A stretch of DNA of 64,000 nt, from assembly GCF_964213995.1 (NCBI RefSeq), contig NC_135822.1:25854001-25918000 (forward strand), in the 5' to 3' direction. Positions 3,086-55,204 of this stretch are shown piece by piece (the stretch's first letter is position 1; the number at the start of each line of letters is the position of its first letter). The position numbers and the translations under genes were made by a program. The stretch comes from Mustelus asterias (lineage: Eukaryota). The notes beneath the pieces were generated by a model, which was not told where the DNA came from, ran no database searches, and saw only the letters and a program-made list of their open reading frames with translations.

Positions 3086-3214
3086 TGCTTTTCACAAACT
3101 GAGGACGTCTTAAAGTGCTTTACACCTAATTAAGTGCTTTTTTCACCTCCAAGTGGAATCACTGTGGTAATGTAGGAAATGCAGCAGCTAATTTGAACAC
3201 AGCTGCATCTGCAA
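3086..3214 (+). repeat. 129-bp direct copy of 3982-4110
   Basis: Only 2 mismatches between the copies. Confidence 0.9.
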
Positions 3215-3603
3215 GAAGATTGAGGGGAGATTTGATAGAGGTGTATAAGATTTTGATGGGTATAGATAGAGTGAATGCAAGCAGGCTTTTTCCACTGAGG
3301 CTAGGGGAGAAAAAAACCAGAGGGCATGGGTTAAGGGTGAAAGGAGAAAAGTTTAAAGGGAATATTAGGGGGGGGCTTCTTCACGCAGAGAGTGGTGGGA
3401 GTGTGGAATGAGCTGCCGGATAAAGTGGTAAATGCTTTTAGCATTTAAGAAAAACTTGGACGGGTTCATGGATGAGAGGGGTGTGGAGGGATATGGTTCA
3501 AGTGCAGGTCAGTGGGACTAGGCAAAAAATGGTTTGGCACAGACAAGAAGGGCCAAAAGGCCTGTTTCTGAGCTGTAATTTTCTATGGTTCTATGGTTCT
3601 ATG
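3215..3603 (+). mobile_element. CR1 LINE 3' fragment
   Basis: RRLRGDLIEVYKI...TRGH ORF2 C-terminus; (TTCTATGG)n tail. Confidence 0.9.
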
Positions 3604-3974
3604 TGTTTCTACCATTTTTTCCCAAAGTACAACTCTTGATAGCCAATGCAGTATTAAATTTAATGCGCAATACCAATAACTGTAGTTATAAATACAATAC
3701 CAGTATAAGGCTGCAGCTGGCAACATGACTATATATTACAGCCCCCTGATTGTAAATCACATTCTAGTCACTAGGTGGCATTCTGTGTACACACATCTAT
3801 AAAACTCTGCTGCATGTTAAAGTGCATTCTAAGGTATTCTACAGTCATTTTAGAAAATGTCCAGAAATCCATCAAAACTCCTAAACACCTTTTCGATCCG
3901 GCTGCTTATCGTATTGGAGTTCAACTCCATTCAATATAGTGATCGAGTGTTAGCAGATGGATTTAGAGAAAGTC

Positions 3975-4412
3975 TTTATCGTGCTTTTCACAAGCTGAGG
4001 ACGTCTTAAAGTGCTTTACACCTAATTAAGTGCTTTTTTCACCTCCAAGTGGAGTCACTGTGGTAATGTAGGAAATGCAGCAGCTAATTTGAACACAGCT
4101 GCATCTGCAAACGGTGTGATAGCAACTGGATCTTTTTTTTTGCTTTTGCTGACATTGGTTGAAGGATAAATATTGGCGAGGATACTGGAGAGGAATTGCC
4201 TGCTTTCCCTTTGAAAGAGGGCGACAGGATTGTTTACATTCACCCGAGAGAGCAGCCACTGCTTCAGGCTTCATCCAAGAGTGCAACTTTGAAGGTGCAA
4301 ATCTCCCACAGTACTGCACAGAAATGTCCGTCTAGATTTTACACTGACGTCATTACTGTGGTACCAGCAACCTTCTGATTTGGAGACAAGAGTGCTCGCA
4401 ACTGAGCCACCG
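3975..4412 (-). mobile_element. SacSINE1/DeuSINE-like old SINE
   Basis: GTTGAAGGATAAATATTGGC...AGTACTGCAC...CTGAGCCAC motifs. Confidence 0.65.
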
Positions 4413-5066
4413 TTATACACTTAAATCGGGCACCTTACAGCAATGTTATTCTGTCACTTCGGATCAATGTACATCCAAAACGACTTTGTATCAATGCAAA
4501 GTAATAACTGCAGCCGATCTTTTTGGCATTACGATATTACTGCAAATGGAAACATCTTTGATCAACTCAAGGTTGAAAACATTCTATTACAACATTAGTG
4601 TAAGCGGTTTTACGGTTGCAGTCATTCAGTTGCATGATATGAGCAAACATGCACACACTGGGTTAGAGCAATACTGAATTGAACTGCTGTACTCGATTGT
4701 ACCGTTTTCCACTTGATGATGTGGAAATGGAATAGCAAAAATCATATACAACAAAAACTCCATTCACTATATGAACATCTGGAATATATTCAAAATCATT
4801 CATTTGCATCCACTATCAACTTTTTCCATTAAAAATTGCCAAGTCCAGATTTAAAGGTGGATATTTAGTGATTTAAATATGTCACACCACATTTATAGCC
4901 CACAGTGCAAATACTGCAGCAATTACACTGTAGAATCTTACATGGGCAGTTTTCATCCTGAACATGGATATTCATGGTAGAAATATATAAAAAGGCAAAA
5001 TGGGATTGAATTATATCTGTGCGCCCAAAAATGATTATCTCCCATCCTCCAAGTCCTTTTTATCTT

Positions 5067-5187
5067 GATGTGGAGATGCCAGCGTTGGATTGGGTGGGCA
5101 CAGTAAGAATTCTCACAACACCAGGTTAATTTGGTATCACGAGCTTTCGGAGCGCTGCTCCTTCACCTGGTGTTGTGAGACTTCTTA
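5067..5187 (-). mobile_element. Penelope-like (family B) fold-back mini-element with truncated hammerhead
   Basis: Starts GATGTGGAGATGCC; short inverted arms; 11-bp TSD CTTTTTATCTT (5056-5066, 5188-5198). Confidence 0.8.
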
Positions 5188-5984
5188 CTTTTTATCTTTA
5201 AGCCAATACTCAGTCTTGACTCCGAATTTGCAATGCCACTAAAAATTGATTAAATATTTAAAACTTTCTTGCATCAATTATGAAACCATAAAGTTGAAGG
5301 TTTGGTGCCAATAAGTTTTAGAATACGGATGACCAGCTTCATGAAGAGACACAATGGTTGGACTTCCCACCTCAATGGCTACCATAGCACCGTGAGGGGT
5401 CACTAAGTGGAGGCCATCTTTAGGAGAGTTATACTGGACTTTCTCTCTCTCGTTCCAGTTTCTTATTTAGACCTCTCTTGTCCAAAAAGGTCATCTGTCC
5501 TCAGTCTGCCCATGGCCTGGGAAGACTCAAGAGGAGATGGGGTTGGAATGTAATTTGAATCTGTTCAATCCGTAAAAAAAAACCTTCAGTCAGGAACAAT
5601 AATCGACCTCAGCAACTGGGAGAGAAAATCTAAATTGTTATCCAGTGACCCATGCTGAAAAGTGGGCGAGTGTGTGGAGATCACATTTTCAGATATGAAT
5701 CCACCCCATGGGTCAAACAGCCTGCATTACTGTCTACACTCTTGTATGAAGGACAGACATTTGAGGGCAAGACACCAAAGGGCTACCAGTGGCTGCAAAA
5801 TTATTCCCCAGTAAGAGCCAATCAGGACAAGATGGTAATGAAAGCGAGAGCATATTTTTATTCAGATGGTCACATATTCAGTGTGTAGCTGAAGCAGAGA
5901 GAAACAAATCCATCTCACATCAGTTGTGGGCGGGGAGGGAGGGAGGGTGTAATACAAACAAAGTTGAAAGGTCAACATGCTGAC

Positions 5985-7472: not shown

Positions 7473-7658
7473 CTCCTTCATCTCGGAGACCTGCTGCTGT
7501 TGCATCCCTTCCAGATCCTTCATGGTGGCTTGCAGAGTGCCTTCAGCCCGCTGGTATATACGCCACAGGTGACAGAGGTGCTCATCGGCAGAGCAAGCTT
7601 CTGTGTCCAGTCCATCTTCCTGCAGTTTGTTCAGTATATCTTCCAGCTCCACCTTCTC
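7473..7658 (-). CDS. CCDC30: CCDC30 coding exon 2 (EKVELEDILNKLQEDGL...QQQQVSEMKE)
   Basis: 186 nt, acceptor tttcttttctcttcag, donor gtgaga, phase 0-0. Confidence 0.8.
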
Positions 7659-8911
7659 CTGAAGAGAAAAGAAATTGCAGGAATCAGAAACAGTGTGCTG
7701 AACGGAAGGGAGAGGGAACGCTACGTATTAAGAAGTCAGAGTCACAGAGTACTGGCAATTTCAGAAATGTAACTTATACAAAAGTAATTCCAACAAAAGT
7801 TGTACTACCGCCATTATACAGAACTATAGCAAACGTACAGCACAGAAACACGACATTCAGTGTCTGACTGGCCAACAAAAGCAAACAAAAAAATAACTAG
7901 CTGCTTATTTAATCCCACTTTCCCAAGTTTGTTCAGACTTTCTGCACATTAGATTTTATGGGTTCTTTTTAAGTTGTTGCTTTTGCTTTTGGCACTGTCC
8001 CTCTATTCCCACCTCCTACAGCACCTTTCACTATTTATTTCCCGGCTGAGATTGTTATCCAGACAGGTCTTGGCCACAGCAGGGAGCTTCCAAATTCAAT
8101 AACAGTTCACAAAGTTACAAAAAAAAAGTGGTTCACGACTGTGAAACATTTCCAAATGTCACAAATAATCAAAAGAACATTGCATGTGCTGTCAGCTAGT
8201 TTCATTATACACAGCTGTCTTTCAGGGCTCAGTTATGATGCCCTCATGAGACACTCAAATGCCCATCGGAATATCAAAAAGTATTCTGCATTGTCTGAAC
8301 TTGGACCACAAGCTTCTCAACCTCCAATTCAACTCCCCTTCTAGTTACTTGATCTATTACCACCGCCACTTTCTTTCTCCAACACAGTAACATCCTCTGG
8401 TACCTCCTCCTTATTGTTAATCATCTGGAGATTTCAGTTATGCAATCATTTCTAACCAGCCTCCCTTTTTTCAATCTGCAAAACTACAACTTAAACAAAA
8501 TGCCAATACCATGTTGTCATCTGTTCAAAACCTCACACCCCTCTCTCATGGCTGCCAGCCAGCTCCTGTGGCTCTCTGTGCTCTGACAAATTTGAGCTTT
8601 AAGATCCTCATCCTTGCCTCAAATTCCCTTCCAGTCTTGCCCACTCTACATCACCATCTCTTCCAGCCACAGTTCCTTGACCATAACATCGGGGGTTAGT
8701 TATTCTCACCATACCAGTGCTGACCTTCGAACTCCATCAGCAGCCACTGCTCTCTGAAACTGGCTCCCTCAATACGGGTTCATCTCATCATCTTCCACTA
8801 GCTTTCAAAACTCTCTTGCATTCACTCCTCTGTCCAACCCCCCTCAAGATGTGGAGATGCCGGCACTGGACTGGAGTAAACACAGTAAGAAGTCTCACAA
8901 CACCAGGTTAA

Positions 8912-9346
8912 CCATAGAAGAAACCATAGAAACCCTACAGTGCAGAAAGAGGCCATTCGGCCCATCAAGTCTGCACCGACAACAATCCCACCCAGGCCCT
9001 ATCCCCATATCCCTACATATTTACCAGCTAATCCCTCTAACCCTCATATTTACCCACTTATCCCTCTAATCTACGCATCCCGGGACACTAAGGGGCAATT
9101 TAGCTTGGCTAGTCAACCTAACCCGCACATCTTTGGACTGTGGGAGGAAACCGGAGCACCCGGAGGAAACCCACGCAGACACGGGGAAAATGTGAGTGGA
9201 GAGAGCATTAAACACAGGTTAAAGAGATGTGTATTGTCTCCAGACAGGACAGTTAGTGAGATTTTGCAAGCACAGACAGTGACCCAAGCCGGGAATCGAA
9301 CCCAGGTCCCTGGAGCTGTGAAGCAGCAGTGCTATGCTACCGTGCC
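8912..9346 (-). mobile_element. HE1/V-SINE-like SINE (tail type i) nested in the Penelope arm
   Basis: 6-bp TSD GGTTAA (8906-8911, 9347-9352); V-domain; CR1-like tail. Confidence 0.85.
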
Positions 9347-9382
9347 GGTTAAAGTCCAACAGGTTTATTTGGTAGCAAAAGC

Positions 9383-9414
9383 CACTAGCTTTCGGGCTGC
9401 TCCTTCGTCAGGTG
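9383..9414 (-). ncRNA. Minimal hammerhead ribozyme with damaged stem II
   Basis: CAC-CTGACGA-A-GGAGCAGCCC-GAA-AGCT-A-GTG; 3-nt deletion in stem II. Confidence 0.55.
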
Positions 9415-10153
9415 AGTGGGAATTCTGTTCACAAACCGGGCATATAAAGACACAAACTCAATTTACAAAATAATGATTGGAAGGCGAGTCTTTACAGGTA
9501 ATCAAGTCTCAAAGGTACAGACAATGTGAGTGGAGAGAGCGTTAAGCACAGGTTAAAGAGATGTGTATTGTCTCCAGACAGGACAGTTAGTGAGATTTTG
9601 CAAGCCCAGGTAAGTCGTGGGGGTTACAGATAGTGTGACATGAACCCAAGATCCCGGTTGAGGCCGTCTTCATGTGTGTGGAACTTGGCCATCAGTCTCT
9701 GCTCAGCTACGACAGCGGATGAATGAACACCGCTCGACAATCACCAGGCAAGAGTGTTCTCTTCCTGTTGGGGAACACTTCAACGGTCACGGGCATTCGG
9801 CCTTTGATCTTCGGGTAAGCGTTCTCCAAGGCGGCCTTCACGACACACGACAGCGCAGAGTCGCTGAGCAGAGACTGATAGCCAAGTTCCACACACGAGG
9901 ACGGCCTCAACCGGGATCTTGGGTTCATGTCACACTATCTGTAACCCCCACGACTTGCCTGGGCTTGCAAAATCTCACTAACTGTCCTGTCTGGAGACAA
10001 TACACATCTCTTTAACCTGTGTTTAACGCTCTCTCCACTCACATTGTCTGTACCTTTGAGACTTGATTACCTGTAAAGACTCGCATCCCAACCATTATTT
10101 TGTAAATTGAGTTTGTGTCTTTACATGCCCTGTTTGTGAACAGAACTCCCACT

Positions 10154-10192
10154 CACCTGACGAAGGAGCAGCAAGCGCTCCGAAAGCTAGTG
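10154..10192 (+). ncRNA. Minimal type I hammerhead ribozyme (Penelope-type)
   Basis: CAC-CTGACGA-A-GGAGC-agcaagc-GCTCC-GAA-AGCT-A-GTG; full core, palindromic stem III, predicted cleavage after 10189. Confidence 0.8.
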
Positions 10193-11338
10193 GCTTTTGC
10201 TACCAAATAAACCTGTTGGACTTTAACCTGGTGCGGTGAGACTTCTTACTGTGTTAACCCCCCCTCAAAGCAGGATAAAACAATTTTGAATCATTCACTC
10301 TCACAAGTCTTTCACACCCATTGGACAGATTCCATTGCTGTCAGGGAAGTCTTTTGTATAAAAGCACTTCAGTGAGGAACCGAATAGCCTGATAGCTTCC
10401 ATGTAGCTCCCTCCCCACCCCACCCAAACCCCCGCCAGAAAACAAGGAAGCTGTCCAAAAGTCAGCAGCAGCAGCAACTGTCACAACTGCTACTCACACC
10501 AACTGTCACCGGAGTACTCTTGGCTGAAAATCTGGTAAAGAAACGGTAAGTGAGATCCCGAGAATGTTAGAACCAATTTGATGTTGTGAGGGGTGAAGAC
10601 TTGAAGTTATTCTAGAAGGACGAGATGTGCTCGGCTAGACAACCTTTGTCAACCATAATTATCTTGTGAACAGGGGGTGGAATCAAGGCTGCATGGGGTG
10701 AAATTGTCAGGAGCGTTTAATGGGCTCATAGTGAACCAGTTACCTGTTTTACTCTGCAAAAGAGTTTTTTCTGTTGCCTCAATCTTGTCCTATTGGTCGA
10801 CTTACCTAGAATCCCAATCTACCTTGGTGTTTTTATGAGTCTTTTGAGGTGTTGAAGTAATGTAATGAGGTTGTGTTGCATAGTTGATATTGAAAATCTA
10901 TTGTAATGAGAAACAACAATCGGCAGAGTCTTCAGACTTGCTGATTAAGAAAACACATAATTGTGAACCATTCAATCTTTGTCCTGTGGTCTCTTAAAAG
11001 TTGTATTACACAGAGACAGCTGAGGGCTCCAACTCTTCTTACTGACAGAGAAGACACATGTTGTTCAGTCAGTCCACTTTGTTGCTCAGGAAACATTTGA
11101 TCTTTCTACCCTGTGAGATTACTGATAAAATAGAATCCATTTACACCCCTTGTATGAAATAATTATATTGACTAATATCAAGCACCCAGACAGGAGAAAG
11201 TATTCCACTTCTTCTATTGAATGGAAAAGATCTTTTGCAGTTTAAGTAATCTCCACAACCACAGGGCATCCCAAAGAACACCTGAAGTGTAATCATCTGC
11301 AGTGAAACTGGTTTTAAATCTGGTCTACCACAGCCTGT

Positions 11339-34757: not shown

Positions 34758-34941
34758 CCTTAAATATCCTTTTTCCACATATCTGAAAACCAAACGCATT
34801 GAAAAGCCAAACTTTTTGAACAGACCCTGTCATGAATAAACATGACAACCGGTCCGATATTTTGCAAAGTAGATATCCAAAAATATCCGAATACCGAAAC
34901 GCAATCGGCCCCGGATTTCGCATAAAGGATACTCAAACCTG
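34757..34941. mobile_element. Tc1/mariner (Tigger4/MER46-like) MITE relic
   Basis: Right end TAAAGGATACTCAAACCTG and internal ATCCGAA repeats resemble MER46. Confidence 0.5.
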
Positions 34942-35076: not shown

Positions 35077-35244
35077 GTGAGTGTGACCAACTCTACTGGG
35101 AGGATATAACAGCTGTCAAAGATCTTTTGTTCCTCAATTCACTGGTGAAAATGTACGTGCAAAAAGGACTTGTATTGCATCCTCTTTGAGAATTAAGGGT
35201 TATGGTGAGCGGGCGGGTGGGATTCCAATGCTCCTAAAAGTAAA

Positions 35245-37696: not shown

Positions 37697-37865
37697 TAAA
37701 GGTGCACTTATCAGCACCCCAGAACTAACTTTAATGGAGCTCTGTGGGGGATGTGCTGTAGTGACCCCTGGTGGTAGCAATGACATTCTGCAAGAAGTAA
37801 ATTGAACTGAAATACAACTTTAAGCAAGATGCCATTTACATGTCGTTCTTTTAAGGATAAGCACT

Positions 37866-41284: not shown

Positions 41285-41406
41285 GTGGTAAGCGTCAGGA
41301 GGAGGCACTGGCAGAGGCTGAGGAAGAGGAACAAGAAGCTTTGAACATTCAGAAACGTTTGGCTGAAAATCTGACAGAGGATGACTTTGGACTTGACCTT
41401 ATTCAG
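41285..41406 (+). CDS. UTP3: UTP3 exon 7 (GKRQEEALAEAEEEEQEALNIQKRLAENLTEDDFGLDLIQ)
   Basis: tttgcag / gtaact, phase 1-0. Confidence 0.95.
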
Positions 41407-43259
41407 GTAACTGGTGGTCTAAGCTGAGCTGTGAAAGTGATTTTTGTACTGGATTCACTGTGCTAAGTTGTACTGAAGGAAAACTTGTGATTTAGTTGAA
41501 GCAATGTTTGACAATTAGACATTTCTGGTGTGTTTCTTTACTGAAGTTTTATTTTTAAAGTGCTGATCCTGCATTCCTGCTTTCTGTCTTTCACACCACT
41601 GAGTTAAGCACACGTCTCCACTGGGACTCAACTTTCATCTGGCTTTGCAATGCTTAATGTCAGCTACATTCCTCGCCTTCACTTTCTTTGCACCGTGACC
41701 CACATGGCGGCGGCGGGGGGAGTGATTTTGTTCTGGTGGAACTGGTGTAGAAAGTAATGGGGAGGCAGAATGCTTCCGTGAGTTAATCTCCGCGACTGCC
41801 TGTACCATTGCCAAAAGGTCAATAGAGGGAGAGAGGGTGAGGACGAAGGTAGCTCAGCCTGCTATCATGTGAGATCCAGCCACACATTCACAGAATGCTT
41901 TCTACTTAAAAGCTGTTGATGGCTTTATGTTCAGTAGCATTGTCATCGGGGTCTAAGTATAGGACTTGTGACTGAGTGATCTGATGAGTCAGTATTTGCT
42001 GCAGTGTCCCATTTCAGACAGTCATTGGATCAGGTATTGGAGTAGTCCGCAAGCCCCTCCAGCATCTCCAAGAAGCTTGGTGTCTATTAGGTCCATCTTT
42101 ATGCCCTGGTTATAATATTGAGGTCCCTTCACCTTCGTATTAAATGGGCTACCGATCTCCAGTAACCCCTGGTCTCCTTTTATGCCACCAATGACACCTA
42201 ATGCAGGTCTTCTCCCCGATAATGCTGCACGTTCATGAGGAGTGCCCCCTTTACGGACTAAGTGGTGGATGAATCACCTTAAACCCAGCAAACAAGGAGG
42301 CTATCGCTTGGTTTTGGGGGTATGCAGTCAATAAATAAGAATTTGATCCTCTTGTTATTATGAATTATATTTTTAAGCTCTCCCTGAAAGTGAGGGTTGC
42401 ATCACACTTTGTGGAAGTGGCTCCCAAGCAGCATATACCCACCCGGTGGTGGTGAGGGGAGAGGGGGAGCATGTGCATGTGTGTTTTAAATCTACGCTGT
42501 GTCTGTAGCACAACTATTGTATCACAAATAGCTTTCTCTTGCACCCTTTTCATAGTATTTCAGTGCTGTTCCTAAATTTGTAGAGTTGAGAAATCTAGTC
42601 CATGTAAATTAAGTAAAGGTATTTTCATATCACATTACTTGAATTTTGCACTGTTTGCTCATACTACTGAGAACTAGATTACAATTCCACAAACTTGCTT
42701 CATTGAGAGTCTTAAATAACTGTCCAAAAGGCACCTTCAACCCGCCATATTCTCTGCTGCACTTGTCTGGAAATCCAAGCAAAGCCTAATACGTCTAACT
42801 AGAGGGACATTAACACCACATTTGGTGCTAGATTTAAGGGCTTTCTATCCTTAAATCTGATGTGTTTCTCCTCTCCCATCAACTGATCTTAATCACTCTG
42901 GAGACTACAATTCTGCTTGCAAATGTTGCAATCTGTGTACCCAGTAGGCACCTGCATTTTAAACATCCAATCACTGACACAAAACCAGCTTTTAAAGGGA
43001 CCACACTTCCCATTGTACAGGATGGGCAATTGACCGGGACTCCTTTTCTTGATCACTATCCATGTTACATGGTCTGTATGAATATCTGGTGAGAAGATGT
43101 CCTGTTGTATGCACACATGATCCTCACGAGATGAATGGGCAATTGGGTGAGATACCTTGACAGCTGCCAGTGCTGCTGAGACTGTATTCCAAAGGAGGGA
43201 GAGTTTTCTAGAATGGTTGAGGGAAGATTTGATTACTTCATGGAGTGTTCTTGTTACAG

Positions 43260-43412
43260 GCTTTTGCCCAGGAGCAGAAAGCTGAGAAAGAACCAGAAGA
43301 TGATCTGAAAATCAAAAAGGACTTGAAGAAAATGTCCCATAAAGAGAAGATGAAACTGCTGAAGAAAGAGTCACCAGAGCTTCTGGAACTGATTCAGGAT
43401 TTCAAAGCAAAG
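43260..43412 (+). CDS. UTP3: UTP3 exon 8 (AFAQEQK...KESPELLELIQDFKAK)
   Basis: gttacag / gttagc, phase 0-0. Confidence 0.95.
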
Positions 43413-43679
43413 GTTAGCAAAACTTTTAAAGCTGCCTTGACTTTATTCATCTGTTTTGGTGTCTTTTCTGGATGATGTTAAATGTCAGATATGTATCTAG
43501 TCAAATAGTCATCGATCTTGTGTAAAATTGATCACCGACATGTGTCCAAAACAACATAACTCCTTCCTAATTCTGATAGCTTTAGCTCCATCACTCGCCA
43601 CTTCCATGCCTGACTCTTCCACTCGCTGATTTCTCTCCTGAGCTCTTGCTGTGAATGAGTGCTCAGGAGCAGGTGGCAA

Positions 43680-44055
43680 AGGGGAGGAAGCGAGCAAAAG
43701 GAGTGTGAGTGAGAGAGTCAAGGCAAGCAGGAGAGAAACAGATAGTGGAGTGGTGAGGATATTGGGATGGGCTGGGGCGCAGTGGGGAGAGGGGAGGGAG
43801 GTGTGGAGGAGAGATGGGGAGGTGGATAACGGAGAGACGAGCAGGGCATCACAGGATGAGAGGAGGAGATGGGCAGGGCATGGCAGGATGAGAGGGAGGT
43901 AGACAAGGCACTAGGGTGAGAGGGAGAGATGAGCAGGGCGCGGCAGAGAGAGGTGGGCAAGGCACGGCAGAGTGAGAGGGAGGTGGGCAGGGAGAGGGTG
44001 AGGCGAGCAGGGTGCGGCAGGGAGAAAGGGAGGTGGGCAAGGTAGGAGGGAGCCT
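43680..44055 (+). repeat. Purine-rich degenerate minisatellite
   Basis: Recurrent GAGAGGGAGGTGGGCA(A)GG units of about 28-30 nt. Confidence 0.75.
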
Positions 44056-44107
44056 TGGGAAGCTTCTCTGCAAAGCTGTACATTTATTTCTGATTTATCT
44101 CTTGTAG

Positions 44108-44179
44108 CTTGCAGAGTTGAAGGATGTGCTACATCCGCTGCTGGAGATGGTGCGGAGTGGGATGATACCTGCTGGGAAG
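44108..44179 (+). CDS. UTP3: UTP3 exon 9 (LAELKDVLHPLLEMVRSGMIPAGK)
   Basis: cttgtag / gtatgg, phase 0-0. Confidence 0.95.
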
Positions 44180-44275
44180 GTATGGGAACAAAAGAGCTAT
44201 TTGTGGCGGGGTGGTAATCAAGGGTGTTCAGGCTGTTGGGAGCGTATTGTAACAATTATTCTCTTTTATTCACAG

Positions 44276-44316
44276 GGTGCCAACTATGTGCAGACCAAGT
44301 ACCATCTGTACCTGAA
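44276..44316 (+). CDS. UTP3: UTP3 exon 10 (GANYVQTKYHLYLN)
   Basis: ttcacag / gtacgt, phase 0-2. Confidence 0.95.
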
Positions 44317-44809
44317 GTACGTTTCTTTGGTAGTACCTTGGGGGGGTTTGTAGCCTTTCCAGAGAGTGATCGGCTGGGAGACTAAGAGGCTTTGAACGCA
44401 GGGTGTCCAATCTGTTTGCCCCTGGTTACCATATGTAGCTAATTGCAGTTTTGATTAGTAAATGATAATGAGCAATGGACAGACGTGCACTCCAGGCTCA
44501 TATTCACATGGTGCCTGCATGTGTCCTTTTCATCAGTTTGATGGGAAGGGAAAAAGCGGAGTGTGCAAGTGTTTTTTTTAAATTCTGCGTTTTATTTCCT
44601 TGGTTTCTGCTCATTGGTTATCTGTTAAAATGGTATGTAACACTGTTGAAAATGTTGGACTTCAGCACCATGGAAACACTAACGTACTATAGAACAGGGA
44701 GCTTCATCCTGTAATAACCATTGAGGGCATGTGGGAATTTCTTGTATAATGCCTGAGAAATATATATACACGGGGGTGGGATGTACACTGAAAATAATTT
44801 GCACTCCCA

Positions 44810-45270
44810 TTAGGTCCCTGGAATGAGAGGGTTGTCCAACGATGAGGGATGAAGTAAATTGGGTCCATATTTCCTGGCGTTTGGAAGAATGAGAGCTGAT
44901 CTTATTGAAACACGCCGAAGAGTGCTTGATGGGGTGGGTGCTGAAAAGGTATTTCCCCGTGTGATTTCCCCCCCCCCCTTGTGGGGGAATTTAGAACCAG
45001 GCGGCTCAGTTTAAAATGAGAGGGTCTCCCATTTAACACAAAGGGGAAGCAGAATTTCTCCTCTAGAAGGGTTGTGAATCTTTGGCATTCTCTACCCCAA
45101 AATGTTATGGATGCGCCATTGTAGATTAAATTTAAGGCTGAGAGGCAGATTTTTGGGGGATGTGGGGAGCGGGCAGTGAAGTGGAATTTAGGCCCAAGAT
45201 CAGCCATGATCTTGCTGAATGGTGGCGAAGACTTGATGGGTCTAATGGTTTGCCGCTGCCCTTGTTCTTG
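44810..45270 (+). mobile_element. Degenerate CR1 3' fragment
   Basis: AGAAGGGTTGTGAATCTTTGG; AGATCAGCCATGATCTT 3' motif. Confidence 0.7.
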
Positions 45271-45317
45271 TGTCTCATCTCTTTCCACATGTCTGATTTC
45301 CTGGTTCTCATCTATAG

Positions 45318-45414
45318 TTACTGCACAAACATCAGTTTCTACCTGGTACTGAAGGCAAAGCGGATCCCAGTGCACAATCACCCAGTAGTTGAGAGACTGC
45401 TCACCTACAGAAAT
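45318..45414 (+). CDS. UTP3: UTP3 exon 11 (YCTNISFYLVLKAKRIPVHNHPVVERLLTYRN)
   Basis: tctatag / gtgagt, phase 2-0; Sas10/Utp3/C1D domain. Confidence 0.95.
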
Positions 45415-45788
45415 GTGAGTATTGCACGGTTTAACTGCACCAGTTTACGATACATCTCCCCCTATCAATGGATAAGACCCCAGGGACGGCCTGGGCTCAT
45501 GTTCTGTTTGCATAATAACTAGATTTTGAATGTGAATAAGATTAGCGTAAGGATGTTTCCCTCTGATTTGTTTTATTCTTTCCTACGTCCTCCGCTCCCC
45601 CCTCCTCCCCTCCCCCCAAAAACAGAATCAGACTCATAATCCCTGGGTAGGTTGCTGAAGAATCCACAACAATACCCAGTTGTTCGTCATAGATGGTTCC
45701 CAGCTAAAAAAAATGCCTGGGTTTAAAAATCAATTGTGCAGATTTCTCCTGTTCTCTTGCAAGTGACAAATATGTTTTCGTCGTGCAG

Positions 45789-45968
45789 CTGATCAACGAC
45801 TTGGTTGGAGTGGATGAGAAACTGTCACCTGAAATCCAACAGCTTTTGACCCAAGCTAGTCAAGAGCGTGGATCAGTTACGGAAAAGGATCAACTTGTCT
45901 CCGAGGTGAAGAAAGCCCCGATCCAGTTGAGCAAACAAGCTAAAGCTGGACAAACTGCGGGAGAAGAG
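45789..45968 (+). CDS. UTP3: UTP3 exon 12 (LINDLVGVDEKLSPEIQQLL...TAGEE)
   Basis: gtgcag / gtaaga, phase 0-0. Confidence 0.9.
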
Positions 45969-46590
45969 GTAAGATGGAGGAGGCTTTCCTCCGAGGCTGG
46001 CAGGGCCAGAAGCCAGATTTCAAGGGGTGAACTGATATTGCTAATTGTGTAAAATATCTAAAGTGTGAACACATGACAATGAAACTGAGCCATGTCTAGG
46101 ATTGTAATCGCCAACTTCATACAAGTTTGATATTGAAGCTGAAACTGAAGTTTTATGATGAGCTCTTACACGCTGAATCCGTCCCTTTTGGTTCTTATTA
46201 TATTTAGGTTATATTTGATAATTAGAACCTTTTAATTTAAGCATTTCCCCAGCATGTTTGAAATCTTCTTCATTTCTAATTTTCACTTTCTCCCCTGCCC
46301 CAGGGAGTAAGTTACATAAAAGTAAATGTACAGACTCCATCCATATTGGTATCAGACAGTGAGACACGAACAGTCCTCCAAAGTTGCACTGCATCATAGC
46401 AAGTCTGGTTAGGAGAATAGCATTAAAGTGGTCCCCTTGGCCTGGGTTTATCCAATGCTGTGGGGAGTGAAATGTTAATACGAGGATCTCTTTCTCTAAT
46501 CATTGCCATGAATGAATATATTTGGCTCACTGAGTGCGATTTTCTGCTTTTCCACATTCTTGAGTTTACAGGATTAATGTTTTGATGCAG

Positions 46591-46712
46591 GTCACTGATC
46601 AGGAAGCCTCTGGGGACTCTGAATCTGATGCAGATGAAGAAGCAGCGTTTCAATATTACAAGGAAATGGAGGAGAGGCTGATGCAGAAGAGGAAGCGAAC
46701 TCAAATGGACAG
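46591..46712 (+). CDS. UTP3: UTP3 exon 13 (VTDQEASGDSESDADEEAAFQYYKEMEERLMQKRKRTQMD)
   Basis: gatgcag / gtactg, phase 0-2. Confidence 0.9.
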
Positions 46713-46894
46713 GTACTGATTATTTATACATGGAGTATGCATGTATAATAACGTGTTTTAAAATATGTCTTCGATTGTGTCCCCTCTAATCAAGGGAATG
46801 GCTATCACAGCATTTAAATTGATCATTTACTTAGTGAGGAGAGGTGACACGCATTGATTCATGTTTTTTTTTAATTAGCTGGCTCGGAGATAGG

Positions 46895-47440
46895 AAGACA
46901 ATACTAAGTTGGGAGGTATTGCAAGTAATTCTCAGGACCAAAGAAATCTTAAAGAGAAGAGATAATGGTCAAAAAAGTGGGAGATGGAATTCAATATCGG
47001 CAGATGTGAAGTGATATATTTTTAAATCCTATGAGGGAGGGAAAGGATGGCTGATGCAGATGAGCAGAGTAATTTGAGGGTTTAGGTTCACAGTATTCCA
47101 AGTGGAAAAGGCCATCATGAAAGCAAATGGAATATTAGATTTTATTGTGAGAATTATCGATTATATAGTTTCTATTGTGATGTTAAATTTTATATCAAGC
47201 CGCAGTAAGATCACAATTGGAATATTGTGTGCCGGTTTTGTGCTGTGCACTATGGAAGGATGTTGAGATAGTAGAGAGGATACAGTACAAATCTACTGGA
47301 AAGCTTCGTGTTATGGAGGAAATACAGATATAAAAAGATTTTTAAAAATTGGACTGTTTTTGCAAGGTCGGAGGAGATGCAAGTGGTGATTTAATGGGAG
47401 ATGTTTAAAATTATGAAGGGGTGGGAAAGAGTAGATAGAA
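46895..47440 (+). mobile_element. Highly degenerate CR1 fragment
   Basis: WEMEFNIGRCEVIYF and KANGIL-like segments. Confidence 0.6.
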
Positions 47441-48084
47441 ATTAGTAGATATGATTGATGTTTGCTGGTTCTGGACCACCTGCAACTCTGGAGCTAAATG
47501 TGGCTCTTTAACATTTCATTTGCGGCTCCCTGCCGTTTCCAGTTGGATCACATTAAAGTGAAAAAAGCCTAAAACCAGAAAATTAAGTCGAGAAAAGTAA
47601 GAGTCGTGTTTTTATTGTGGGAATAAAGAGCTAATTATTTTGCTGCACTTTTGCGGTCTCAAATGATTATTTTAAGGAAAAACATTGTGCTCTAAATAAA
47701 CCGGTTCACGTGGCATAGCCACAGCAAAGGGGTTATACATATGGCCTTTGCTTCGAAGAACAGATTTGGTGGTTGTGACCATTATAGCTGAGACGATAAA
47801 TTATTCTGAATGTGCTATTAGAAACAATCAATAGCCAAAGAGGTTGTCTTAATTCTACACATCTTAAGGTAAAGTTGTTGTAAAGATAACCACTGACAAA
47901 ATTGTAGTTTTTAAAAAAAATAGTTTTATAAATGATAATTCTGAGCTAACTTTTATTTTGGTTTCTCTTTCTATTGACTTAAAAAATGCATGTATTGAAT
48001 TTATTAATTATGCAAATTTGCATTCTACCAGGGACACTCCACAATTTGCCCAAGTATTTGATTTAGAAATGTTGAATATTCAAC

Positions 48085-48403
48085 TTAAAAGTTAAAGTGA
48101 AGTTTATTTATTAGTCACAAGTAAGGCTTACATTCACACTGTAATGAAGTTACTGTGAAAATCCCCTAGTCGCCACATTCCGGCACCTGTTCCGATACAC
48201 TGAGGAAGAATTTAGCTGGGCCAATCCACCTAACCTGCACATCTTTGGACTGTGGGAGGAAACTGGAGCACCCGGAGTAAACCCATACAGACACGGGGAG
48301 AACTTGCAAACTCCACACAGACAGTGACCCAAGCCGGGAATCGAACCTGGGTCCCTGGTGTTGTGAGGCAGCAGTGCTAACTGCTGTGCCACCGTGCTGC
48401 CCC
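48085..48403 (-). mobile_element. V-SINE, tail type ii
   Basis: Full-length copy in reverse orientation. Confidence 0.9.
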
Positions 48404-49331
48404 ACTATTGGTTCCCAATAGTTTTTGTTGCAGGCAGTTTCAGTTTCATTAGAAAAGGCGCTTAAAGTAAAACAAGGCTGGCGACCCCTGTTCTAGATCC
48501 TTCAATGTAAGAGATTTCGGACTAGAAACAGGAGAAACCTTTTTACACCCTGGATTGCACAATTAGAGTTTGTGATTGATAAAGGCCATGTCAACATTTA
48601 AGAATAAGTGGTTGAAGAAAAGATGAAGGCACTGGGATGTACACATGACATTAGTACTACATTAGTAAGGTTAAAAAATCAACATTGACTGGTTGGCCTG
48701 AATAACCTACTTCCATTTTGCCATTATATAATTCTCTGGTTTGATTCTCTGGCAAGAATACGTTGGAGATACAACAACTGGATTTGAAGTTACAGAAGCA
48801 GCAACAAGACAAAAAAAAATCGGCCACACTGCATCAGTAAAGGGCTTGAGTAACAAGAATGGGAAGAGCTGCAAACTGGCCATGAATTTGCCATTACAGG
48901 AATTAGTTCCCCTTTAAATGCAAGTTCCTGACTAGTCGGTGTTTCTGCTCTTTGCCACTTTGCAGTGACCCTCAGCTGGAATATTTTTGATTGTGGGTTG
49001 AGAGGCAGGGTTGGGCTCACCTGTGGTCCTTTTCTACATCTCTCTATCAAATAATCTGCTGCAAGTTACTGCCTGGACTCGAGCATGAAAACACCCGAAG
49101 CAGCAGCTTTTGGGGGAGTAGGGTGGAGAACCGGTAATGAACTTGAGAAATAATGTTGTCACGCTAGTTTCTTCTAAAACCTGTACTGATTTGATCCCAG
49201 ACAGCTGAAACTTCCCCAAACTCTCATTTCTTCCTCTCTCCCACATCTCTCCCACCAGCATCACCAATATTTGTTACTGTAAACAAAATGTTGATGTATC
49301 AAATGCATTAACGTTGGGTTTTGTATTTCAG

Positions 49332-49398
49332 CAATGAGAACAGTGCTGTGGTAAAGGAAGAGCTTCGTCCAGATGGAAAAAGAAAGATCACGTACCAG
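49332..49398 (+). CDS. UTP3: UTP3 exon 14 (NENSAVVKEELRPDGKRKITYQ)
   Basis: tatttcag / gtttct (weak donor), phase 2-0; KR.ITYQ motif. Confidence 0.9.
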
Positions 49399-49679
49399 GT
49401 TTCTATCTCAATTCTAACATAACATCATTTATTATTTATCTGCTTTAGAACTGTTTTTTAAATTTTTTTCTGGACCGACTGGAAGCTTGTAATGCTTTGT
49501 AGAACTCAAATCTTAAGACTTGACCAATTTCTTTCCAGTTATAATGGTAAGGATTTATTATTCAATTCAAAAAGAACATTTACAATCCTAAATCTCTACC
49601 AACCAAAGGGGAGGTTGGACAGTCAGTGCACAGCTCAATGTTTGCTGCTGTATAACATACTATATTCAATCCCTCCATC

Positions 49680-50045
49680 ACCGATGAACAGTGGTAGCAG
49701 TTACCACTACAAGATGCACTGCAGGAACTCACTAAGGATCCTTAGCCAGCACCTTCCAAATCCAAGACCCCCACCATCTAGAAGGACAAGAGCTGCAGAT
49801 ACCTGGGAACAATCACCACCTGCAGGTTCCCTTCCAAGTCACTCACCATCCTGACTTGGAAATATATCACCGTTCCTTCACTACTGCTAGGTCAAAATCC
49901 TGGAATTCCCTCCCTAACAGCACTGTCGATGTACCTACACCTCAGGGATTGCAGCAGTTCAATAAGGCAGCTCACCACCACATTCTCGAGGGCAACTAGG
50001 GATGGGCAATAAATGCTGGCCTCACCCACATCCTGTGAAAATTAA
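49680..50045 (+). mobile_element. CR1-type (second family) 3' end
   Basis: Same sequence as 20865-21210 in the opposite orientation. Confidence 0.8.
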
Positions 50046-50427
50046 AAAATATTAATGAGCACATGGCACTTCAGGGGCAATATGCTTCCTCTGTTCCTTG
50101 TGGGAGGGAACGCTGTGGTTTTACATGTGTCCAGTTGGATGAGAGCTTCCCAAGCAGAGAATCCAAGATTGCTATTAATTATGAGCATGCAATCTAATCA
50201 GACTTTGGTACAGAAAACTGTGGGACTGGACGTTATAAACGTGCTGGTCACATTCACATTTAGGGTGTTTTATGTGCTGTTGTGTGGAAGATGAACTCTG
50301 AAACACGTGTTAATCTTTAGTTGAGCAATACGCCCATTGAACTTTTCAATTCATAATATTTGATTACAAAGATCTTGTAATCAAATTGTCTATGGATGCT
50401 TCTTAAACTCCATTTGATTCTCTACAG

Positions 50428-50535
50428 ATCTTCAAGAATAAAGGTCTCACGCCTAGGAGGAAGAAGATTGATCGTAATCCCCGAGTCAAGCACCGAGAGA
50501 AATTCAGACGTGCTAAAATACGAAGGAAGGGCCAG
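50428..50535 (+). CDS. UTP3: UTP3 exon 15 (IFKNKGLTPRRKKIDRNPRVKHREKFRRAKIRRKGQ)
   Basis: tctacag / gtaagt, phase 0-0; Sas10 C-terminal domain. Confidence 0.97.
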
Positions 50536-50869
50536 GTAAGTGAAGGACACCCTAAGGAGTTGGTCGTGGAGAGTTGTTTTTATTTAAATAAAATGGGTCA
50601 TTGACATCTTTTAAATAGTTTAATTATGACTGTGGAAATGTGTCAGCTGCTGCTTACCAACAGGCGAGAAGATGTCAGACAATCTAAAGTGGGTCTATCT
50701 TTAAGTAGTCAAAAATAAGAAAATCCTATTATTTTCAAAAGAAGTTGGATTTAAAAAGGCAATCAGGAAGTAAAGCAAGTCAAAGTCAAGCAAGCAAGGT
50801 TAAATAATGTAGTAGAAATAAACTAAAGTAAAATAAAGTTAACAAAAAGGGATTTTAATTGAAGCCATG

Positions 50870-53505
50870 GCAGCACAGCTTGGTCACGTGAATGCATATC
50901 CTGTAATATGTTGGAAATCGTGGACGCTGCCAGTATCCTAGATAACCACGTGTAGGAAGTGTCACCATTTGCAGAAACTTGAGCCACGGGTTTCGGAGCT
51001 TGAATGGCGGCTAGAGTCACTGTTGCACATCCAGGAGGCTGAGAGCCATGTGGATAGCACATTTAAAGAGCTGGTCACATCGCAGCTTAAGAGGCTGGAG
51101 GCAGAATGGGAAGGGTGACCTCCAGGCAGTCCAAGAGAACTGGGCAGGTAATGCTGGGGTCCTGCTCACCAATTGGTTTTCCGTTTTGGTTACTGATTGT
51201 CCCTGGGAGGAGTGCAGTCTGTGGCTCTGCTGTAGAGGAGGGGAGGGAAAAGAAAGGAAGAGCAATAGTGATGAGGGATTTGTTAGCTAGGGAAAGAGAG
51301 ATGTTTCTGTAGCCATAGATGTGACTGCAGGGTGGGATGTTGCCTCCCTGGTGCCTTGATCAAGGATGCCACAGAACAGCTGAAAAGCTTCTGCGGCAGG
51401 ATGATCAGCAGGATGATCAGCAGGATGTTGTGGTCCACATTAATGGCTTAGGAAGGAATGGTGATAAGGCCCTGAAAGCAGATTTCGGGGAGTTGGGGAA
51501 GGGGATTGAAAAGCAGGATCTCTAAAGCTGTAATCTCAGGATTACTGCCAGTCCTACATGCCAGTGAGCATAGAAATTGGAGAATTGAGCGATTAAATAC
51601 CTGGCTGGAATGCTGGTGTAGGAGAGAGGATATCAGATTTCTGAGACATTGGGACCGCTTCTGGGGAAGGTGGGACCTGTACAAGCTCGAATGGTACAGG
51701 TGAACCGGACTGCGAAGAATGTCTTTGCAGGGATATTCGCTAGTGCTGTTGCGGGCCCAAGGGTTGGCGCAGTTTAAACTAGTGGCAGGGGATGGGAAGC
51801 TGAAGGCAAATAGTTTTCAGGCAAGATAGAGAAGGATTAAAAAAGGTGGGTGTAGGAATATTGGTTAAAGAATCAATTACAGCTGGACAAGACCTTGAGA
51901 GGTTGAGCTCAGGAATGAAAACGGGGCAGCTACATTGCAAGGAGCGTACTCAGGCTTCCCAAAGAGTGGAGGGGAGTTAGAACAGCAAATATGTACGCAT
52001 ATTTCTGATTTTTAAAAAAAAGGGGAATGTTAGTCAGAGACTTAACTACCCTAATATCAATTGATGTACGAATAGTGTGAAGAGCACGGGGGACGCAATA
52101 TTCTTGGATCTGAATTTTATACTCCACCCCTCCTCACACCGGCTCTCTTCACTTCGTCCCAGGCACAACACTGCAACACCACTACCTGGATGGGCTGGAG
52201 AGCTATTAGCCAATCTGATTGGCTCATAGCTCTCTATGGCAGGATTTCCTTTCAAGCCTGCTGCCAATCAATGTTTATTTGAGCGTGAAATGGCAGCATG
52301 TCTGTCAGAGTTGGTGGGGCTTTCAGGGCCTTATCACCATTCCTTCCGAAGTCGTTCATGTGGAAAAATTCAGGCCTTGACCTGCATTCAAGAGAACCTT
52401 TTTTAGCCAACGCCTAAGAAGCCCATAGCGAGGGGGTGCGATTCTAGATTTAGTCTTGGGAAAAGTGAGGTAATGCATTTGGGGAGGGCAAACAAAGCAG
52501 GGGAATGCTCATTAAACGGGAAGATGTTGAGAGAGGTAGAGGAAGTGAGGCACCTTGGTGTGCATATCCACAGGTACCGGAAGTGGCAGGACAGGTGGAT
52601 AAAATGGTCAAGAAAGCAAATAGAATGCTTTCCTTTATTGAGTGAGGTATTGAATATAAAAACAGGGATGTAATGATGGAACTGTATAAAACACTGGTTA
52701 GGCCACAGCTGGAATTTTGTGTACAGTTCTGGTCACCACATTACAGGACGGACATAACTGCTCTGGAGAGAGTGCAGAGGAGGTTTACAAGAATATTGCC
52801 AGGGCTTGAAAATTGCTGCTATGAGGAGAGATTGGATAGACTATGGTTGTTTTCCTTAGAACAGCAGAGGCTGAGGGATGTCCTGATAAAAGTGTACAAA
52901 ATTATGAGGGGCCTAGATTGGGGAGACAGGAAAGACCTGTTTTCCCCTAGTTGAGGGGTCAATTTCCAGGGGGGAAAAATCCTTGGTAGAAGGATTAAAT
53001 CATAGAATTGCTACAGTGCAGAAGGAGGCCATTCGGCCTATCGAGTCTGCACCCACCACAATCCCACCCAGACCCTATTCCTGTAACCCCACACATTTAC
53101 CCTGCAAATCCCCCTGACAATAGAATCAATTTAGCATGGCCAATCAACCTAAGCAGCACATCTTTGGACTGTGGGAGGAAACCGGAGCACCCGGAGGAAA
53201 CCCATGCAGACACGGGGAGAATGTGCAAACTCCACAAAGATTGGAGGGAACATGATGAAAAACCTTTTCACCCAGAGGGTGCTGGGCATCTGGAATTCAC
53301 TGCCCAAATTGGTGCTTGAAGCTGAATTGCTCTCAGCATTTAAAAGTTACCGGGATCTGTACCTAAAGCTGTGTAACCTGCAAGGCTACAGACCAGAGGT
53401 TGGGAAATGGGATTAAAATGAGTTCCTGCTTTCTTTTTTTTTTTGGCTGCGCAGACACGATGGGCTGATGGCTTCTTTCTGTGCTGTAACTTTTCTATGG
53501 TTCTA
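50870..53505 (+). mobile_element. Fragmented CR1 (ORF1 esterase region to ORF2 3' end) with a nested MITE (about 52106-52377) and a minus-strand V-SINE (about 53000-53237)
   Basis: KSRISKAVISGLLPV..LNTWLECWCRRE..FLRHWD (ORF1); LYKTLVRPQLEFCVQFWSP (ORF2); TTCTATGG tail. Confidence 0.8.
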
Positions 53506-54044
53506 GAATAAAATTGAAAATGGCTCCCCTAGCCTTTGTAGAAATTTTCCTGTGAGTGACCGACTGATTCTAGGATGGTACCGTGAATGGTAGTGCTCAG
53601 TGACATGGCGCTGAACTGAAGTAATGTGTTTATATTGTGTGCGGCAGAATCCAATATTAGTTTCTGGAGAAGGTACATCATAGGCAACTAAATAAATAAC
53701 TGGGATTGATCCCAGAAGCTATGAGAAGAGGCATTAGAAATCAAAATAATTATACTTGACAAGGTTCGAGACTAATCTTGCTAAGGCCATACAAACTAAA
53801 ATGTTGGTTGTAGTCAGCAACTATACGAACTGCAGCAATTCAAGAAGGCAACTCACCACTTCCTCAGGGACAATTAGTTATGGCAGTAAATGCTGGCCTA
53901 TGATGCCAACATTCCATGACTGAATATATTTTGTTGGCCTGAGAAAGGATTGAGACTATGAGGCAAAGTTTTGTTTGTTAGTTAGACTTTCCCTTGCATT
54001 CGTCGGCTCAAAAAATGCTTTCCTGTACAATTGCAGTAAGTGCA

Positions 54045-54357
54045 AGTGGCACAATGATTAGCACTGTTGCCTCACAGTGCTAGAGATCCAGGTTCAATTC
54101 CAGCCACGGGTCACTGTCTGTGTGGAGTTTGCACATTCTCCCCGTGTCTGTGGGTTTCCTCCCATAGGTTAAAGATGTGCAGGTTAGGTGGATTGGCTAT
54201 GCTAAATTGTCCCTTAGTGTCTGAAGATGTGTAGGTCAGGGGATTAATGGGATTACAGGAATAGGGCCTGGATGGGATACTGTCAAAGAGTCGGTGCAAA
54301 CTCGATGGGCCAAATGGCCTCATTCTGCACTGTAAGGATTTTATGATTCTTCTATGA
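54045..54357 (+). mobile_element. V-SINE, tail type i
   Basis: tRNA head, V-domain and tail. Confidence 0.85.
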
Positions 54358-55204
54358 ATATCAACCTGAGGGAATCTGTACATGTGGAACCCGATTGAAC
54401 ATGGAATCTTATTAACCAATGAGATTTTAAAGTTTTAAAATTAAATACCAAGCACTCCAAGCAAGGTGAATTAAAGGAGTGAATTCCATGGTAAATCAGG
54501 TATAGAAAGAGAGTTTCAAAGACAGCAAGGAAAAAAAGAAATGATTTTAAAGATACTCCCTGGAAAAATTCAAAAGCTGAAGGAATAAGGGAACAGTTCT
54601 GGTCACCACATTACAGGATGGACATAACTGCTCTGGAGAGAGTGCACTTGATTTTCAGTGCCAGAATGGTTGCGTAGCAATCATTAATACTCATCACAAA
54701 ATTAAAAAGGTACATACACTAGTTATGATGAGACTCAACTGTGGTAATGGGCAAATAAATAAAGTTCCAAAAAAATCTGGAAGGCTAAATCTGCAAGCTA
54801 CTGGTGGAATTCAGACTGCAACTTTTGGATATTTGCATTTAACTGTGCACCTGGTCCTCTTGAGTGCAGTATAATTTGCTGCGTTACTGTGTCATAACAA
54901 ACTATGGCCCAATGTTCATATGGAAGACTCTGGGACCACCAGAACGGAGCATCCCCTAATGATGTGCTGGATGAAACATTTGAGAATCACCCAAGAGTGG
55001 ATATTTGTACTGAATCCATAATTTAAACTCTCTCATAACTGCATACCAGTGGATCATTCCTTGGTAATATAGCTATCTCTGTATTTCCCCCAAACTTTAA
55101 CAGCACATACGCCGACAATATATATTTTTTGTGTTGAGATTTCTCCTTTAAGCCCAGTGTCTCAGTTTATTTACATCAGTCAATGAGAGATTTCAATTTT
55201 GCAG

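Follow-up and report, generated by a model that had tools for sequence, protein, structure and literature searches.

The window analysed here, a 64,000-nucleotide stretch of the Mustelus asterias genome (contig NC_135822.1, positions 25,854,001 to 25,918,000 of the forward strand), contains seven short segments, each of which resembles a second segment nearby. The initial annotation had described them as copies of neighbouring DNA, and all seven pairs were recovered, at the same coordinates or a few bases off, with unrelated flanks. The gap between copy and donor is 537-1816 bp in six pairs and 251 or 691 bp, depending on the donor, in event 2. Copy and partner differ in sequence in six of the seven pairs, none of the copies has a poly(A) tail when the flanks are read directly, and five of the seven donors or partners sit in repeat families. 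Relative to the candidate exons of host genes, every one of the seven events is either inside an exon or in the DNA separating two exons.

Structure of the seven events

The copy of event 1 (3086-3214, plus strand, direct, 129 bp) is identical to its donor (3982-4110, plus strand) at 127 of 129 positions (98.4 %). It joins the 5' end of a young, 5'-truncated 3' fragment of a CR1-type LINE (3214-3607, plus strand) with a microsatellite tail that ends between 3603 and 3611, and the last base of the copy is common to the LINE. The donor lies about 390 bp from the pre-insertion site, inside an old repeat whose homology runs beyond the right end of the donor. With the LINE 97-99 % identical to 39 other copies and the copy 98.4 % identical to its donor, the two are of similar age.

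An orthologous empty site, which the initial annotation had named as confirmation, was found together with the donor for event 1, the one event tested. A contig of a relative (run X1) joins 3084 to 3621, without the copy and the LINE and with the donor kept, and contig arithmetic gives a loss of about 15-20 nt at the site. This empty site is one contig from one run; the listed contigs of the relatives X5 and X9 fall short of spanning it. Since copy and LINE are both missing in the relative, co-insertion is indicated, and the copy probably arrived together with the LINE insertion. The left junction is crossed without differences by a short-read contig (run X23, possibly the assembly's own sample).

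Breakpoints were readable for events 1, 2, 4 and 6, while events 3, 5 and 7 yielded no host copies. Three copies split a transposon: 9 nt of the host element are deleted at event 2, 4 nt at event 4 and about 20-60 nt at event 6, and events 2 and 4 also have microhomology of 3-6 nt. The copy of event 2 (9189-9271, plus strand) is an 83-bp internal piece of a Penelope-type element within a SINE, with 6 nt of microhomology; its left and right flanks together match intact SINE copies in 217 hit pairs, the best six of which show the 9-nt gap. The likelier donor is the inverted arm at 9963-10045 (minus strand, 82/83 identical), which carries the same minority letter as the copy, the alternative being 9523-9605 (81/83 identical); a 40-mer with this letter occurs exactly in 345 places. 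In event 4 the copy (33073-33134, plus strand) lies within a 1-kb inverted-repeat element (32226-33255) and the donor (32160-32230, plus strand) is single-copy DNA directly to the left of that element. The two are 82 % identical over 71 columns with a 9-nt gap, and there are 3 nt of microhomology on each side, as read against the intact copy L057, the only one of three to align to both junctions. The copy of event 6 (52319-52364, plus strand) is inverted relative to its donor (51434-51479, minus strand; 42/46 identical), which lies within the repeat-derived region 51150-52090. Comparison with four intact copies shows that it has taken the place of about 20-60 bp close to one end of a small repeat element.

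Event 3 consists of a probable copy (17627-17766, plus strand) that is old, 85 % identical over 142 gapped columns to its partner (16848-16988, plus strand), the 3' part of an old repeat; the direction of copying is not established. It ends near the 3' end of that repeat, as an independent insertion would. The copies of events 5 and 7 are tailless internal LINE pieces in unannotated DNA. That of event 5 (35190-35218, plus strand, 29 bp) is identical throughout (29/29) to its probable donor (34624-34652, plus strand) within a CR1-type LINE (33380-34760, with an RVT_1 ORF at 33385-34563). The copy of event 7 (54593-54646, plus strand, 54 bp) matches at 53 of 54 positions a donor (52723-52776, plus strand) that lies within a CR1-type LINE and is spanned by 63 distant repeat hits. 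One further pair in the window (37631-37698 and 38443-38510, 90 %) failed the best-hit filter.

Matches elsewhere in the genome

In searches of the shark's own genome, at most the best 40 candidates per query were scored. Among these scored hits the neighbour ranks first, or is the sole other hit, in five pairs (events 1, 3, 4, 6 and 7), and does not in events 2 and 5, which have high-copy donors. Among the best 40 scored, the neighbour of pair 1 is 98 % identical and other long hits 73-80 %, with short partial ones at up to 92 %; that of pair 3 has the highest score, at 85 % over the full length; those of pairs 6 and 7 reach 91 and 98 %, the remaining hits being at 78-82 and 89-97 %, respectively. 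Pair 4 has only two hits in the genome. For pair 2, distant copies are 97-99 % identical and the neighbours are not among the best 40 listed, and the 29-mer of pair 5 occurs exactly at 4,942 places. The donor of events 2 (9189) and 5 (35190) is a high-copy repeat, and a local origin is likely, though unproven. Repeat donors were left out by a pipeline filter of Pace et al. (2009), who state that it leads to an undercount (PMC2671141).

The initial annotation also held that most copies match their neighbour at copy-specific positions. This is so for pairs 1, 3 and 7, with 13, 5 and 5 shared non-majority letters, weakly so for pair 2 (one letter) and not for pair 5 (none); pair 6 had no family copies in the sample used for this comparison.

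Survey of the genome sample

Of eight 200-kb blocks, one (C18) was discarded as satellite; the resulting sample covers seven chromosomes with 1.46 Mb in total and was searched by self-alignment for segments of 25 bp and more, shorter inserts being invisible. Hand-applied rules removed 19 of 60 pairs (seven LTR pairs, two Penelope arms, two element ends, five with gaps below 130 bp and three doubtful ones). The 41 curated pairs lie 0.29-4.7 kb apart, where about two were expected under the same automatic filter; the background within 2.4 kb is about one pair across the whole sample. For the 35 pairs that lie outside the window, uniqueness was judged within the 1.46-Mb sample. Strict two-copy pairs at 50-2000 bp number 22 in this sample, whereas the rate between chromosomes predicts about 0.02.

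The curated pairs are 21 direct and 20 inverted, with a median length of 111 bp (range 29-518) and a gap of 1.0 kb in the median and 1.1 kb in the mean, the smallest being 289 bp and almost none exceeding 2 kb. The distance profile, drawn from 46 pairs, holds about 23-33 pairs per kb up to 1.2 kb, 13-18 up to 1.9 kb and at most 2 beyond. A 1/distance law was rejected (P=0.0005) and an exponential was not (P=0.13); a broad upper bound on the distance, at about 2 kb, is genuine. The offset of 780-910 bp suggested earlier as preferred was not borne out, as it accounts for 3 of the 35 offsets outside the window with 2.8 expected, and two of the offsets in the window are set by intervening elements (the 390-bp CR1-type fragment and the 1-kb inverted-repeat element).

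In six sample pairs (29, 40, 46, 49, 11 and 25) the copy likewise sits within a repeat, and the median number of deleted nucleotides is 14, 7, 14, 11, 36 and 8, respectively, each median resting on 1-4 supporting hit pairs. One event per 9 kb, the density seen in the window, does not apply generally: the 35 pairs in 1.4 Mb correspond to one per 40 kb. The window is a local high in duplication density, with 6 pairs passing the filter in 64 kb and 1.6 expected (Poisson P=0.006), although it had been picked for its richness; one 50-kb tile outside it carries 5 pairs.

Origin of the copies

The pairs are true duplications of nearby DNA and were in our view probably left by the repair of double-strand breaks in the germline (repair-mediated duplication of the SDSA type). 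A broken 3' end would prime on DNA up to about 2 kb off, copy 30-500 bases in either orientation and be released, and the released end would then be joined to the other side of the break. We infer that a minority, namely event 1 and perhaps 7-10 % of the pairs, is coupled to retrotransposition, genomic DNA having been copied during the sealing of a break that a LINE or SINE had opened on insertion. Synthesis-dependent repair with local templating, one of the sources envisaged by the initial annotation, is supported as the main one by the local excess, the distance range and the scars. The classical polymerase theta inserts that it also envisaged do share a local template, direct or inverted orientation and microhomology priming with our pairs, but their primary tracts are described as rarely longer than 10 bp (PMC7165422), whereas the single tracts here are 29-518 bp long and come from about 1 kb off. 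The repair pathway is inferred from the scars, here as in Pace et al. (2009).

Template switching during replication (FoSTeS or MMBIR), where the starting point is a stalled fork or a gap instead of a two-ended break, would give identical scars, i.e. microhomology, either orientation and a local template, and examples are known from the human germline (PMC8421209). By sequence alone it is inseparable from SDSA. However, the MMB-TI events described in that work are all inverted and have their template no more than 100 bp off (the limit of the search made there), whereas half of our pairs are direct and the gap is at least 289 bp, with a median of 1 kb. We regard template switching as an unlikely source of the pairs.

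A reverse transcriptase that jumps from its RNA onto nearby DNA could have made the copy of event 1, where copy and LINE are both absent at the relative's site, and a SINE or LINE 5' end adjoins 3 of the 41 pairs when 0.62 would be expected, pair 19 being a fourth by eye. Even at event 1, however, the element's polymerase and that of the host are indistinguishable. No counted 5' end adjoins 37-38 of the 41 pairs, events 4 and 6 lie within inverted-repeat-type elements, and among 38 young members of the CR1 subfamily inserted at event 1, none has a near-identical piece of local DNA at its 5' junction (upper 95 % bound 7.6 %). Local matches that were seen at those junctions are older repeats in which the element landed, or weak short hits; the search for target-site duplications was uninformative, with matches of 5-6 nt in 10 of the 38. 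The retroelement involvement raised in the initial annotation thus stands as a coupling for one event and is disfavoured as a general cause; that such jumping made most copies is quite improbable.

That dispersed repeats were inserted independently, or that the assembly is in error, could be suspected from the repeat families of the five donors or partners, from the equal or better distant copies of events 2 and 5 and from the end of event 3 close to the 3' end of its repeat. Against both stand the background of about one pair expected within 2.4 kb in the entire sample, the non-majority letters common to copy and neighbour, the sequence differences within six pairs and the contig of run X23. 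Independent insertion is refuted as a general cause and possible singly for events 2, 3 or 5; for the pairs as a whole we give this explanation very little weight. Capture of nascent host-gene RNA by a reverse transcriptase, to which the position of all seven events among candidate exons could point, is scarcely credible: with a copy in direct orientation next to a plus-strand LINE, event 1 requires a plus-strand RNA, whereas the exons flanking it (7473-7697, 1539-1630 and 692-781; heuristic candidates that lack a firm Pfam match) lie on the minus strand, and the 21:20 orientation across the sample also speaks against host RNA templates.

Comparison with known systems

The phenomenon is known, in humans as well as in other vertebrates, and the seven events are ordinary scars of it; it is the lineage that is new. 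The repair-mediated duplications of Pace et al. (2009) are also short non-tandem copies of up to about 600 bp with a donor 50 bp-5 kb off (about 1.2 kb in the mean), microhomology and deletions, no poly(A) and lineage-specific occurrence with empty sites, and the human ones have a mean length of 162 bp, a maximum of 619 bp and a mean distance of 1.2 kb (PMC2671141). All seven of our events have a donor on the same chromosome at 50 bp-5 kb, and breakpoint microhomology or deletions are seen at events 2, 4 and 6 against intact host copies, and the loss at event 1 in the contig of the relative. The genome set described by Pace et al. is without cartilaginous fish (PMC2671141). Their detection was anchored on interrupted transposons, and they feared that this had produced their 1.2-kb peak (PMC2671141); our pairs were detected by self-alignment with no transposon anchor, and the distance range is therefore independent of that bias, a modest addition to a known phenomenon. 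Doublets or short paired duplications (Thomas et al. 2004, as cited in PMC2671141) are likewise short and local and were proposed to come from imperfect break repair, but are near-identical pairs below 100 bp in mammals. Our searches of literature listings returned no shark report of such duplications, which is weak evidence of absence.

Event 1 resembles L1 templated insertions, in which a genomic piece of less than 250 bp is found within a non-LTR retrotransposon insertion (bioRxiv 10.1101/2024.08.27.596794; PMC11702581), in that 129 bp were probably co-inserted and both parts are skipped in the relative. The frequency is also similar, with 22 among about 3,598 insertions there and 3-4 among about 445 SINE/LINE 5' ends here. 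The L1 cases described are from somatic or cultured human cells and their template is typically within 15 bp of the site, whereas event 1 took place in the germline, involved a CR1-type element and drew on a template about 390 bp from the site; it thus works like an L1-type templated insertion and is not classed as a typical member. That a CR1-type insertion in the germline carries a patch of DNA from some 390 bp off, with an empty site in support, is again a modest addition.

Pace et al. give 0.62 duplications per Mb of transposon DNA in human and 0.19 in zebrafish (PMC2671141). In our sample, where repeats cover at least 0.67 Mb, events roughly following their rules number 3-4, or 2-3 without the window's own event. 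The resulting rough density of 3-6 per Mb is above their values, but the pipelines differ, the count is 2-4 events and its lower Poisson limit overlaps the human value; a density higher than in humans is suggested, not established. It is a tentative and rather doubtful generalisation that sharks carry several-fold more repair-mediated duplications per Mb than mammals, with a donor choice about flat to 1.2 kb that stops near 2 kb and about one in ten formed during the sealing of a CR1 or SINE insertion. If it is true, the donor-distance profile would be a fossil measure of the reach of a broken germline end. One shark species has been reported to accumulate 7e-10 mutations per base per generation (PMC10587355), and if the density excess survives a like-for-like comparison, slowly evolving shark genomes would form a large archive for germline break repair. 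At 25 per Mb, if this holds, there would be in the order of 90,000 such duplications in this genome.

Results

In a sample of 1.464 Mb from seven chromosomes, made up of the window and 200-kb blocks (eight taken, one satellite block left out), short duplicates were in local excess. Among pairs of 25-400 bp with at least 90 % identity and no third match within the sample, 22 were 50-2000 bp apart, none 2-5 kb apart, three farther and eight on different chromosomes, while about 0.02 were expected at up to 2 kb. A looser filter (at least 80 % identity, at least 3 points over any distant match, 50 bp-5 kb apart) gave 142 matches, reduced to 62 once tandem arrays were masked and to 60 once merged, with an automatic-filter background of about 2 pairs within 5 kb. 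Removal of 7 LTR, 2 Penelope-type arm and 2 element-end pairs, 5 with a gap below 130 bp and 3 doubtful ones left 41 pairs, with a median length of 111 bp and a median gap of 999 bp (289-1821 bp in 39), of which 21 were direct and 20 inverted. The excluded LTR pairs, seven direct pairs of 225-316 bp, 4.0-4.4 kb apart and 89-100 % identical in blocks C1, C3, C7 and C14, four with TG..CA ends, are the LTRs of young LTR elements. The block left out (G000:C18:30.0-30.2 Mb, L139-L158) was 200 kb of GC-rich (59 %) satellite.

The seven copy/donor pairs described for the window in the initial annotation (events 1 to 7) were all real, with unrelated flanks of copy and donor. In own-genome searches, in which at most the best 40 candidates were scored, the neighbour was the best other match among those listed for events 1 (copy 3086-3214, donor 3982-4110), 3 (17627-17766), 6 (52319-52364) and 7 (54593-54646), and the only other match for event 4 (33073-33134). 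The margin for event 7 was small, 98 % compared to up to 97 % for other matches listed. The copy-specific letters attributed to most pairs were seen in events 1, 3 and 7, where 13, 5 and 5 non-majority letters were common to copy and neighbour (family majority from 12, 9 and 56 copies, respectively). For events 2 (9189-9271) and 5 (35190-35218) distant copies were equal or better, a result that the initial annotation itself had named as contrary to its reading. Both are internal fragments without a tail, and a local origin is thus likely. In the genome there is one exact match to the event 5 29-mer per 745 kb, which makes the chance of one at most 2.2 kb away about 0.6 %. The event 2 copy has one minority letter, carried by 19 % of copies, in common with the inverted arm at 9963-10045.

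Six of the 41 pairs were inside the window (event 2 does not pass the filter). The 35 outside correspond to one per 40 kb, and not to the one event per 9 kb first suggested, so that the window has about four times the average density (P=0.006, not corrected for the choice of the window). A preferred offset of 780-910 bp was not recovered: distances of 779-915 bp occurred in 3 of the 35 outside pairs, compared to 2.8 expected if distances were spread evenly over 0.3-2 kb. Once the five short-gap pairs were put back, there were 24, 23, 33, 33, 13, 18, 2 and 0.4 pairs per kb of distance in bins ending at 0.3, 0.6, 0.9, 1.2, 1.5, 1.9, 2.4 and 5 kb. An exponential law was compatible with the data (P=0.13) and a log-uniform law was ruled out (P=0.0005). 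Today's distances are overestimates, later insertions having enlarged the spacer.

The event 1 locus (2300-5300) was compared with contigs of four runs. One contig of X1, a run of a related species, aligns with 2523-3084 and 3621-4079 with 32 letters in between; the donor is present, and both the 129-bp copy and the adjoining young CR1-type LINE fragment (3214-3607) are missing. About 15-20 target bases have apparently been lost in M. asterias. The contigs listed for X5 and X9, runs of other relatives, do not reach across the site, and the empty site is that of the one X1 contig. A contig of X23, a short-read run that contains 95 % of the words of the stretch and possibly stems from the sample of the assembly itself, spans the left junction and shows zero differences. 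Copy and donor are 98.4 % identical, in line with the 97-99 % identity of the LINE fragment to 39 other copies among the matches listed. The simplest reading is that copy and fragment arrived in a single event; two separate events hitting one spot are possible. The donor was about 390 bp away when copied, compared to 896 today. Nascent RNA had been proposed as a possible template, but the candidate coiled-coil exons flanking the site are on the minus strand and capture of nascent host mRNA would therefore yield an inverted copy; we infer a DNA template.

SINE/LINE 5' ends were adjoined by 3 of the 41 pairs (0.62 expected) and by a fourth found by eye. Event 1 is among these and the sole one with an empty site. 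As these 3-4 pairs compare with 445 counted ends, and none of 38 checked 5' junctions of young copies of the event 1 LINE's subfamily had a near-identical local copy, the proposed coupling to retroelement insertion is real but minor. A Penelope-type end adjoins the 5' junction in four of 38 young CR1-type copies (L190, L197, L198 and L206), L197 and L198 having an identical junction and L190 and L206 an identical LINE cut point; target preference or a mobile chimera may be involved.

The event 2 copy splits a SINE, from which 9 nt were deleted, with microhomology of 6 nt at the junction, and the SINE splits a Penelope-type element (8848-10255; inverted arms 9347-9710 and 9860-10228, 95 % alike), forming a three-layer nest. 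Relative to the one intact copy compared, the 1-kb inverted-repeat element that the event 4 copy interrupts has lost 4 nt at the insertion point, and both junctions show 3-nt microhomology. In event 6, about 20-60 nt close to one end of a small repeat have given way to the copy, as judged against four intact copies that differ in length. Host copies of the DNA surrounding events 3, 5 and 7 were sought for junction comparison and none was found. The names CR1, Penelope, SINE and MITE are those we presume to fit these elements in window and sample; the computation itself shows only RVT_1 domains in LINE-like copies and repeat structure.

The window (G000:C22:25854001-25918000) is repeat-rich and CpG-depleted, in a genome of 3.68 Gb; a 'shark metagenome' run and runs of several other organisms have words in common with it. 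A Sas10-domain gene (PF09368, E=5e-13), which we take to be UTP3, has exons at 41285-55295 on the plus strand, including 50428-50535; what appears to be its last exon lies downstream of events 6 and 7, and the gene probably contains events 4 and 5 as well. Exon prediction also pointed to a long coiled-coil gene, with minus-strand candidate exons at 7473-7697, 1539-1630, 692-781 and L023-L028. A Pfam search of these exons gave no firm match, and CCDC30 is our guess. A minus-strand ORF with a DFP domain (62725-63546; PF04127, E=5e-5) is likely the first exon of what we take to be the phosphopantothenate-cysteine ligase gene.

Discussion

The pairs match a known kind, the repair-mediated duplications of Pace et al. 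(2009), who described 824 in human, with donors at most 5 kb away, a mean length of 162 bp and a mean distance of 1.2 kb, as well as cases in chicken and zebrafish, and connected them to the doublets described by Thomas et al. in 2004 (PMC2671141). The scars point to germline break repair from a nearby template as the most likely source, which supports the repair part of the original interpretation. The resected end of a break would anneal via 1-6 nt of microhomology to DNA within about 2 kb, be extended by 30-500 nt and disengage, and joining it to the second end would then cost a few to tens of bases. Replication template switching is a possible origin judged from the same scars. Classical polymerase theta inserts, as described in PMC7165422, are far shorter and were not supported as the source.

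No report of such duplications in sharks was among the papers listed by a literature search. Here, 3-4 events satisfied roughly Pace's rules in repeat DNA totalling 0.67 Mb or more, compared to 0.62 per Mb in human (PMC2671141); a higher density is a lead only, since events are few and the pipelines differ. Event 1 resembles in its working the templated insertions reported for L1, 22 among about 3,598 (bioRxiv 10.1101/2024.08.27.596794) and three further cases (PMC11702581), but its template is more distant.
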